64,000 nucleotides of DNA, taken from the NCBI GenBank assembly GCA_038153605.1, contig JAYOYS010000001.1:57527-121526 (forward strand), in the 5' to 3' direction. Numbering within the stretch: position 1 is the first letter of the stretch; every line of letters begins with the position of its first letter. The position numbers were made by a program, and so were the translations under genes. The notes below the pieces were generated by a model, which saw only the letters and a program-made list of their open reading frames with translations, did no database searches and had not been told where the DNA came from. Source of the stretch: Flavobacteriaceae bacterium (lineage in GTDB: Bacteria; Bacteroidota; Bacteroidia; Flavobacteriales; Flavobacteriaceae). Shown here one piece after another: positions 32,793 through 34,588 of this stretch.

Positions 32793-33761
32793 TCAGCAAC
32801 ACCCACCACCATCGTAATGAAAGGTTGAGGGACTTATAAAAATATCGTCTCTATTTAACGCCGCCATAGCGCCGGCAGTTTTATCACATATGGCCAAGGG
32901 TTGATTCGGCATCAAAACGTGGCCTTTTTTATCGTCAAAATAGTCTTGATCTCCGAAATAAATAGCTGCTTTACCAGTAAAGACACATGGTCCATCTTCA
33001 GGCATTGGGTCTTTAATTGCTGCGACTTCAATCGATTCAATATAGATTAACTCCTTGGTTGGGTAATGTCCTGGCGCCAGAATCCGATAGGGTTTACGGG
33101 CGCGAATTTCAATGGTCCCAAAACCCGCATCAGTAAGGGCTTTTACGTATTGATTTATGGGCAAACTGCCACTTAAACACAGGGCGCGTAATCGGTCATC
33201 TTCCCTTAGGGTCTCATTCATTTCTTGCTCGCAAGTAGGATCACTCATCACCAGGCGCCCATGGGGTTTTAGGACGCGGTACATTTCGGCTACGGCTTTT
33301 TTAAGTTCTTGATCTTTGAAGATATTAAACAGGCAATTTTGTGCGGCTACATCGACACTTTCATCCTCAAGGGGAAGATTTAGGGCATCGCCCTTGCGCA
33401 AGGATACAAAATCCGAGGAAAACCAAGGGTTTAAGGCCTCTGCCTCTTTGAAATTTGCCCTTGAAGACTCAAGCATTTCATCGACCACATCTACCCCGAT
33501 AACATTGCCTTTTTCTCTGGAGAAATAGGCAAATTGTAGCAGTTCCATGCCGCCACCGACACCCACATAAAGGATTTTGGGATTGCGGCTTAAATCTCTC
33601 GGATGAACCGTAGAACCACAGCCGTAATTCATCTCTTGCATGATTTTTGGAATGCGCAGTCCGGGCAATTCCCAAATGGGATTTGTGGTGCAGCACAAAC
33701 CAATATCCGGGGTTTGGGCGGCTTGTTTATAAACGTCTTTGGTAGTTTCTAAATAACTCAT
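32793..33761 (-). CDS. arsM: ArsM-like SAM-dependent arsenite methyltransferase
   Basis: Class I methyltransferase motif ILYVGVGGG. Cysteines lie in ArsM-like contexts (GLCCTT, YGCGST, QNCLFNIF, RALCLSGSL), with a C-terminal GGGCC. Confidence 0.78.
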   Translation of the reverse strand: MSYLETTKDVYKQAAQTPDIGLCCTTNPIWELPGLRIPKIMQEMNYGCGSTVHPRDLSRNPKILYVGVGGGMELLQFAYFSREKGNVIGVDVVDEMLESSRANFKEAEALNPWFSSDFVSLRKGDALNLPLEDESVDVAAQNCLFNIFKDQELKKAVAEMYRVLKPHGRLVMSDPTCEQEMNETLREDDRLRALCLSGSLPINQYVKALTDAGFGTIEIRARKPYRILAPGHYPTKELIYIESIEVAAIKDPMPEDGPCVFTGKAAIYFGDQDYFDDKKGHVLMPNQPLAICDKTAGAMAALNRDDIFISPSTFHYDGGGCC

Positions 33762-34588
33762 AGGGATATACGCTCAATTAAAATTTTGAATAATTTGACC
33801 ATTTGGGGCTCTGCTTTTTTAGCACTAGCGATAATATCACTGATATCTACAGGCGCTAAATTGTCGGGATCACATTCATCTGTCAAAACTGAAACGGCTG
33901 CGACAGGAAGGCTGAGGTGATTGGCAACGATAATTTCAGGTACGGTACTCATGCCCACAGCATCTGCGCCGATCAGCCTTAAAAATCTATATTCTGCCTT
34001 AGTCTCGAGTTCCGGGCCACGCACGCCAACATAGACCCCTTGATGTAGTTTTATACCGAGTTCACTGGCAATGGACAATAGTGTTGCACACATTTCTGGA
34101 TCATAAGGCGTGTTGAGGTCCACAAAGCGTTCTCCCATTTGATCCACGCCTTTAAAGGCCAAAGGAGAACTGCCCTGCAGATTGATATGATCGTTAATCA
34201 GCATCATTTCCCCTTTTTTATAGGCTAGATTTAATGCGCCTGAGGCATTACTTACCAGCAATCGTTTAATTCCTAGAGCATGCATCACGCGCACGGGAAA
34301 AGAGACTTCTTCGGGGGTATAACCCTCGTAAAGATGAAACCTACCTTGCATCACGACTACCGTTTTCCCCCCTAATTCTCCATAAATGAGTTTACCTTGA
34401 TGAAACTCTACAGTGGCTGTGGGAAAATGAGGGATAGTGGTATAGTGTGCCTCTTTTTCGACATGGACCGCGTCGACAAGCTCACCTAAACCCGTTCCGA
34501 GAACTATGCCAATTTCTGGTTTTGTGAACCCGCGTTCCTCTAGGAATAATTTTGCCTGCTGAACTTGCTGAATAAGTTTTGGTTTCAT
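33758..34588 (-). CDS. trimeric purine nucleoside phosphorylase (PunA/MTAP fold)
   Basis: [27 protein letters not shown] and GMSTVPE motifs. 4-nt overlaps on both sides. Confidence 0.9.
   Translation of the reverse strand: [276 protein letters not shown]

Follow-up and report, generated by a model that had tools for sequence, protein, structure and literature searches.

The stretch of DNA examined here raises the question of which enzyme removes adenine from the arsenic-adenosine intermediate of arsenosugar synthesis. The window, as we call the whole stretch of 64,000 nucleotides, comprises positions 57,527 to 121,526 of contig JAYOYS010000001.1 (assembly GCA_038153605.1), which belongs to a marine Flavobacteriaceae metagenome-assembled genome (MAG) of 1.88 Mb and 86% completeness (G000). 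On its minus strand, at 33758..34588, profile and structure matches identified a 276-amino-acid homologue of the trimeric-type purine nucleoside phosphorylases (PNPs), encoded inside an operon with the arsenite methyltransferase ArsM and the radical S-adenosylmethionine (SAM) enzyme ArsS. Arsenosugars are the main arsenic species of marine algae and seafood, and in the literature searched enzymes are assigned only to the first committed steps, catalyzed by ArsM and by ArsS. The ArsS product, 5'-deoxy-5'-dimethylarsinoyl-adenosine (DDMAA), is already known (PMC13598754), and no paper in that literature ties a phosphorylase or nucleosidase to arsenosugar synthesis or assigns the removal of adenine. 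The PNP of the window is a good, testable candidate for this step. That it phosphorolyses DDMAA to adenine and an arseno-ribose-1-phosphate, which the DUF2064 and GT2 proteins of the same operon would use, is a reading that we consider evenly poised on the sequence comparisons described below.

The encoded protein matched PF01048 at 171.6 bits (cut-off 25.1) and the 'purine-nucleoside phosphorylase' profile NF006054/PRK08202 at 332.6 bits (cut-off 218). Its score of 284.5 bits against TIGR01700, the inosine and guanosine-specific PNP I, was slightly under the cut-off of 293.35, and its 98.6 bits against the methylthioadenosine phosphorylase (MTAP) profile TIGR01694 fell far under the 274.85 required. 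An AlphaFold model (predicted local distance difference test 95.4) displayed the PNP fold. Structures were compared with VIA-align through secondary-structure positions and aligned ranges, and the model superposed on 4m1e with a Z of 44.5 and a root-mean-square deviation (rmsd) of 0.9 Å over 273 residues. Human and bovine PNP (Z about 40) and Clostridium perfringens 8swu share the fold at a similar level (Z about 40, rmsd 1.4-1.6 Å, about 273 residues), with 38-41% identity and the same ligands, the equivalent of Glu201 included. The residues that contact phosphate, ribose and base (T32, H63, R83, H85, Y87, E195, M213 and S214) correspond to human S33, H64, R84, H86, Y88, catalytic Glu201, M219 and S220, and they were invariant or nearly so across all groups aligned. 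As all of these ligands are intact, the enzyme looks active, and by its similarity to trimeric structures it would form a homotrimer.

In a phylogeny of 117 PNPs, with support given by the Shimodaira-Hasegawa-like approximate likelihood ratio test (SH-aLRT), all 40 operon-linked PNPs fell into one clade, termed A (SH-aLRT 100), and the sister clade B (SH-aLRT 99, 48 rows) held no linked member. From its sequence, the gene of the window looks to encode a catalytically active nucleoside phosphorylase of the trimeric type that belongs to a subfamily of its own, clade A. We describe PNPs below by the residues at the positions of human F200, N243 and H257, which read L-D-I in the window. The human residue numbering used here agrees with published residue numbers.

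A preliminary description of this DNA had placed an Asp at the base-recognition site of the PNP, and this was borne out by three comparisons. Asp237 (codon GAT, 33878..33880, minus strand) occupies the site of human PNP Asn243 and MTAP Asp220, and in HMMER alignments its counterpart in 8swu and 4ns1, both PNPs of the N type, is Asn. The spacing from L194 to M213 (+19) and to T236/D237 (+42/+43) is that of F200, M219 and T242/N243 in the human enzyme, the distance from the Met/Ser of the GMSTVPE motif to Asp237 being equal to that from M219 to N243. In the aligned ranges with Kluyveromyces lactis PNP 5ifk (query 24-245, chain 34-264), D237 faces N256. A shift of the Asp off the Asn243 site was looked for, and the Asp stayed in place. 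In the AlphaFold model this residue closes strand 229-238, and the C-terminal helix begins at 249. The statement that Asn-to-Asp mutants of PNPs gain adenosine activity was likewise confirmed, as the N256D exchange reverses the specificity of the K. lactis enzyme, which then prefers adenosine, and N243D raises adenosine turnover by the human enzyme about 5000-fold (PMC5074518).

The Asp was invariant in clade A (46/46 relatives) and in clade B (47/47), and is therefore no chance substitution. As a distinguishing feature of the arsenic-linked enzyme it was nevertheless ruled out. The F-D-H housekeeping PNPs of Bacteroidia that lack ArsS also carry it (8/8 sequenced cases, from five families), and clade-B PNPs carry it in ArsS-positive and ArsS-negative genomes alike. 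Because the F-D-H type of ArsS-less Bacteroidia, including that of Bacteroides fragilis, has this residue, Asp is normal in Bacteroidota PNPs, and Asp237 by itself says little about an arsenic pathway. The B. fragilis enzyme 8swt (Z 43.2, 46% identity) shares the Asp at the N243 site and differs from the PNP of the window in keeping the equivalents of Phe200 and His257, as is typical of the F-D-H type. It was crystallised with Immucillin-H, a hypoxanthine analogue, and so the Asp does not exclude 6-oxopurines. The preliminary description had made the PNP a candidate for adenine removal on the strength of the Asp; the candidacy stands, through the operon and the pocket, and the use of Asp as the discriminator does not. 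Nor does a preference for a modified 5' position follow from the Asp, as had been proposed. That preference is better backed by the replacement of His257 with Ile249 and of Phe200 with Leu194.

Ile249 (codon ATC, 33842..33844, minus strand) stands at the site of human His257, which binds the 5'-hydroxyl, and in the model the C-terminal helix begins with it. A HMMER alignment paired it with the His of 8swu (motif NHEEV), and it also aligned with a Val in an NCBIfam-confirmed MTAP fragment from an ArsS locus (L266; TDYDCW, signature F-D-V). Through the latter alignment, D237 and I249 match the MTAP pair of Asp and an aliphatic residue (human D220 and V233). His was present at this position in 42/42 classical representatives and in 6/6 F-D-H PNPs. 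Leu194 (codon CTC, 34007..34009, minus strand) takes the place of human Phe200, and position 194 covaries with 249 regardless of the residue at 237. Compared with the trimeric PNPs (PunA/PNP-I, low-molecular-mass), the enzyme therefore has Asp for Asn243, Ile for His257 and Leu for Phe200. MTAP/MtnP, another member of the trimeric NP-I superfamily, acts on a 5'-substituted adenosine and shares both the base-site Asp and the aliphatic residue at the His257 position, whereas the PNP of the window falls outside TIGR01694, lacks the TDYDCW motif and has Leu where MTAP has Phe at the Phe200 site. An adenine-accepting base site thus looks to be combined here with a 5' pocket in which a hydroxyl is no longer recognized, and together these two features are the logical basis for proposing a 5'-modified adenosine as substrate.

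Further residues separate clade A from clade B, namely F62, D/N240, N243 in the gate loop, and A231. Phe62 (codon TTT, 34403..34405, minus strand), which adjoins His63 (human His64), is a clade-A marker; the position is Phe in clade A, Ser in clade B and Gly in F-D-H and classical PNPs. The loop E-C-D-P-D-N-L (residues 238-244; 33857..33877, minus strand), between Asp237 and Ile249, has the form C-[D/N]-P-x-[N/D/H]-L in clade A and C-F-P-D-[A/S]-L in clade B. By sequence the closest solved structures were 4lna from Spirosoma linguale (E 1.9e-87) and 4m1e from Planctomyces limnophilus (E 8.2e-75), which share the signature type as L-D-L and superpose with Z 42-44.5 but have a clade-B-type loop (C-F/L-P-D-x-L). 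The literature searched contained no functional paper on these structural-genomics entries, and the copy of the PDB that was searched contained no clade-A structure.

When 126 family representatives (50% identity) were sorted by the residues at the human F200, N243 and H257 positions, 42 were classical [Y/F]-N-H, eight were [F/Y]-D-H, 17 were L-N-[I/L/V] and 20 were L-D-[I/L/V/M]. The label 'Purine-nucleoside phosphorylase' therefore covers at least four specificity classes. The L-N-[I/L/V] class (P0124, P0128, P0130, P0140, P0141, P0149, P0162 and others) would suit 5'-modified inosine or guanosine, for example methylthioinosine or 5'-deoxyinosine; we know of no characterised member. Tandem PNPs with the signatures L-D-L and M-N-L were seen in an ArsS-less genome (L158, G111:C11:532375-534022), the duplicates differing at the base-specificity residue.

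The genomic setting of the PNP carries the second part of the argument. It comes fifth in an array of minus-strand genes that begins with an AhpD/CMD-family protein (36801..37160) and continues with ArsS (TIGR04167; 35727..36794; 433 bits, cut-off 300) and a rhodanese-domain protein (profile match to NF045521; 35230..35772), which probably starts in fact at an ATG overlapping the stop codon of ArsS (35727-35730). DUF2064/TIGR04282 (34585..35196; 205 bits, cut-off 134) lies immediately upstream of the PNP. It has a CofC/MobA-like nucleotidyltransferase fold, and among solved structures 3cgx, a 'putative nucleotide-diphospho-sugar transferase', comes nearest to it (E 1.8e-27). Downstream are an arsenosugar-type arsenite methyltransferase, ArsM (NF038099; 32793..33761; 564 bits, cut-off 400), a DUF547 protein (profile match; 32027..32812) and a glycosyltransferase of family GT2 (TIGR04283; 31275..32021; 232.5 bits, cut-off 182), after which the array runs on through a small membrane protein, two more GT2 enzymes and LpxR. 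ArsS, ArsM, TIGR04282 and TIGR04283 all scored above their cut-offs, on the same strand and within 31275-36794. ATGA overlaps join the PNP start to the DUF2064 stop and the PNP stop to the ArsM start, so that the gene is translationally coupled to both neighbours. Among known systems, the arsenosugar pathway with ArsM and ArsS in Synechocystis sp. PCC 6803 is close to this array, and the four families are those of the NCBIfam set for arsenosugar biosynthesis. That set names no phosphorylase, and the PNP is an addition found in Flavobacteriaceae and some other Bacteroidia.

Linkage was assessed in 80 PNP loci of Flavobacteriaceae. DUF2064 was directly upstream in 79/80, ArsS was within 10 kb in 65/80, and ArsM adjoined the PNP in most. 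Among 80 ArsS-centred metagenome loci, 30 contained a PNP, and the gene orders were of at least five kinds: ArsS-PNP, ArsS-PNP-DUF2064-GT, ArsS-ArsM-(Rhod)-DUF2064-PNP, divergent arrangements and the order of the window. The PNP kept its DUF2064 neighbour even in genomes whose ArsS gene is far off, at a distance of hundreds of kb (G291, G295) or on a separate contig (G275). DUF2064 is thus its most constant partner, which suggests that a sugar-phosphate product is handed on. The earlier proposal that DUF2064 and the glycosyltransferase act on the sugar is upheld as far as the conserved pairing of DUF2064 with the PNP is concerned; an arsenic-specific role for the DUF2064-GT2 pair was not upheld, for reasons given below. 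One further contig (L003, OMJU01000060.1) has an operon whose PNP is 88% identical to that of the window. Its record is titled 'Candidatus Rokubacteria bacterium', and this MAG contig has probably been mis-binned or mislabelled.

In a sample of 301 Bacteroidota genomes, ArsS scored above the cut-off in 110, TIGR04282 did so in 181, and 282 had a PNP homologue. Within the family of the window, a clade-A L-D-I PNP was found in 12/12 ArsS-positive and 0/11 ArsS-negative genomes; seven of the latter had an F-D-H PNP and four had no PNP. G187, the only ArsS-positive genome of one genus, had PNPs of both types, the one in the cluster being L-D-I. At class level the counts were 20/24 for ArsS-positive and 3/51 for ArsS-negative genomes, with E <= 1e-93 to P0001 as a rough proxy for clade A. 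As the genomes are related to one another, these co-occurrence counts overstate independence. Clade A looks to be a lineage recruited into the flavobacterial ArsS/ArsM operon.

The operon would also allow a role in arsenate handling, in which the PNP cleaves nucleosides by arsenolysis and thiols reduce the resulting ribose-1-arsenate, providing As(III) to ArsM, as was proposed for mammalian PNP in vitro. A rhodanese-domain gene is nearby, and PNP-dependent arsenate reduction in vitro is on record in work cited in review PMC12608789, which states that occurrence in vivo is unknown. Such a role would leave unexplained the changed 5' pocket, the pairing with DUF2064 and the restriction of linked genes to clade A, and we regard it as very improbable.

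The DDMAA-phosphorylase reading would arrange the operon products in five steps. ArsM yields dimethylarsenite, and ArsS adenosylates it to DDMAA, as is established for ArsS. The PNP would then split DDMAA with phosphate into adenine and 5-deoxy-5-dimethylarsinoyl-alpha-D-ribose-1-phosphate, with Asp237 permitting adenine to leave and Ile249 and Leu194 opening a non-hydroxyl 5' pocket. The DUF2064 protein would turn the sugar-1-phosphate into a nucleoside diphosphate (NDP)-sugar, and the TIGR04283 GT2 enzyme may move the sugar to an acceptor to give a beta-riboside, as in natural arsenosugars. GT2 is an inverting glycosyltransferase family, and a course from sugar-1-phosphate through NDP-sugar to an inverting GT2 enzyme would be stereochemically consistent with beta-riboside arsenosugars.

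Several observations, taken up in this and the following paragraphs, weigh against that reading. One concerns the host genome, in which the PNP of the window is the sole PF01048 member detected; the search of this 86%-complete genome found no DeoD, uridine phosphorylase, MTAN or MTAP, whereas complete relatives carry a gene resembling uridine phosphorylase alongside a DeoD-type PNP. As the only such gene there, it may also serve housekeeping. If the enzyme simply served ordinary purine salvage, acting on adenosine, inosine and guanosine, its location in the operon would have no bearing on a pathway. This would accord with its plain PNP name in NCBIfam and with the binding of 6-oxopurine analogues by Asp-bearing PNPs (Immucillin-H in B. 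fragilis 8swt). We judge this improbable, since the His that binds the 5'-hydroxyl in classical (42/42) and F-D-H (6/6) PNPs is replaced, and since housekeeping salvage in complete ArsS-positive relatives is provided for by a DeoD-type PNP besides. Within a single family, and within a single genus, the gene is moreover found where the cluster is and missing where it is not, and its linkage has survived several rearrangements.

Clade B presents a further difficulty. It is near-universal in other classes of Bacteroidota, where it was found in 20/20 ArsS-positive and 18/20 ArsS-negative genomes and was never linked to the cluster. An L-D-hydrophobic signature specific to ArsS was therefore ruled out, as clade B has it independently of ArsS. 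A sister clade with the same pocket and no dependence on ArsS indicates that the pocket predates the operon link and evolved for another substrate. In clade B it probably serves another 5'-substituted adenosine, for which 5'-methylthioadenosine (MTA) and 5'-deoxyadenosine are the obvious candidates, and the clade-A pocket, to judge from its residues, probably also accepts both. This leads to the alternative of by-product clearance, in which the PNP is a general 5'-substituted adenosine phosphorylase, analogous to MTAP, that removes MTA and 5'-deoxyadenosine and does not act on the arsenical. Radical-SAM enzymes such as ArsS and SAM-dependent ones such as ArsM are inhibited by both compounds, and this would be the reason for the position in the operon.

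Besides clade B, the MTAP-like residues at 237 and 249 favour clearance, as does the outcome of PF01048 searches, which found no MTAN or MTAP in G000 or in five complete ArsS-positive relatives. ArsS-negative Flavobacteriaceae were found by the same search to be likewise without MTAN and MTAP, and they are also without clade A, so that clade A is not needed for general disposal of MTA and 5'-deoxyadenosine in the family. The steadiest neighbour of the PNP is moreover DUF2064 and not ArsS, which points to a product being handed on, and clade A has substitutions of its own relative to clade B (F62, D240, N243). We therefore hold clearance alone to be possible but rather doubtful. The DDMAA-phosphorylase and clearance readings are not mutually exclusive, and both can hold.

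The distribution of the cluster bears on both. ArsS loci of other Bacteroidota families had a PNP in 0/20 cases, with the layout CMD-ArsS-(DUF2064-GT2), and clusters outside Bacteroidota, which have rSAM-methyltransferase and GT2-DUF2064 fusions, had a PF01048 gene within 6 kb in 0/3. Its absence from these 20 and 3 clusters means that a phosphorylase is not a universal cluster member and, if needed, is often encoded elsewhere; ArsS clusters of other phyla without a dedicated phosphorylase also fit clearance. MTAP occurred in only one of the 80 metagenome ArsS loci (L266), where it was unlinked, with genes for a cytochrome, a cytidine deaminase, RodZ, PilW and a kinase between it and ArsS; the samples testing for MTAP near ArsS in other phyla were small and biased to close ArsS relatives. 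A more fused version of the system was seen in Deferribacteraceae, Vicinamibacterales and another MAG (L293, L294, L296). It consists of a radical-SAM/methyltransferase fusion of 674-852 aa and a GT2-DUF2064 fusion, accompanied by a VTT/DedA membrane protein, a pyridine-nucleotide-disulfide oxidoreductase and sometimes DUF547.

Clade-A genes were also present in a few ArsS-less genomes (G195, G111, G103). In the last of these, a complete genome, DUF547-Rhod-DUF2064-PNP is kept (L278, G103:C32:20900-36300) and the best ArsS match is under the cut-off (E 6e-8), so that the module exists there without its presumed upstream enzyme. The downstream partners show a similar independence. The DUF2064-GT2 pair occurred in 71 sampled genomes without ArsS, and a pair so common in such genomes is not strictly arsenic-specific. 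With TIGR04282 in 181 and ArsS in 110 of the 301 genomes, the label 'arsenosugar biosynthesis' on TIGR04282 and TIGR04283 over-reaches where ArsS is absent. To our knowledge, there is also no demonstration that Bacteroidota make arsenosugars.

Stand-alone TIGR04282-TIGR04283 pairs were seen in G084, G120, G252, G152, G206, G106 and others (loci L270-L276). There were about 45 GT2-DUF2064 fusion proteins, a number that fits consecutive steps for the two enzymes. A fusion of DUF2064 to a PNP (P0390, L292:4546-5736, 396 aa) was considered as a Rosetta stone and rejected. It comprises a full DUF2064 and a PNP from residue ~96, an in-frame deletion having removed about 95 N-terminal residues including the phosphate ligands. 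Its locus retains rhodanese, GT2 and DUF547 genes without ArsS or ArsM and looks like a decaying cluster, and we read the fusion as decay. Likewise set aside was an AMP-nucleosidase-like gene as a non-orthologous replacement of the PNP. In one ArsS-positive genome (L122/L283; G067:C45, ~243270-244723), DUF2064 is divergent to a short gene of this kind (NF005500, 432 bits). The arrangement was seen once among all loci examined and may be coincidence.

This comparison adds several results. As judged from the alignments, Asp is not diagnostic, and the residues of the 5' pocket together with membership of clade A are. Added too are the co-occurrence pattern in Flavobacteriaceae and the finding that neither clade B nor the DUF2064-GT2 pair depends on ArsS. 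With a candidate in hand for the adenine-removing step, the late pathway can be put to the test with three recombinant proteins. Specificity residues are predicted for the candidate (D237, I249, L194 and F62), the F-D-H PNP offers a natural control paralogue, and DUF2064 is a defined next enzyme. More broadly, and tentatively, clade-A PNP, DUF2064 and TIGR04283 GT2 might form a nucleoside-to-glycoside relay for SAM ribose modified at C5' by a radical-SAM enzyme, an idea that we think unlikely as it stands. Phosphorolytic removal of adenine would be followed by formation of an NDP-furanose from the 5-modified ribose-1-phosphate and its transfer to an acceptor. As many ArsS-less genomes also have L-D-x PNPs and the DUF2064-GT2 pair, the relay might act as well on 5-substituted riboses that contain no arsenic, for example 5-deoxyribose or 5-methylthioribose. 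If true, it would give cells a new way of making nucleotide-activated pentofuranose donors.

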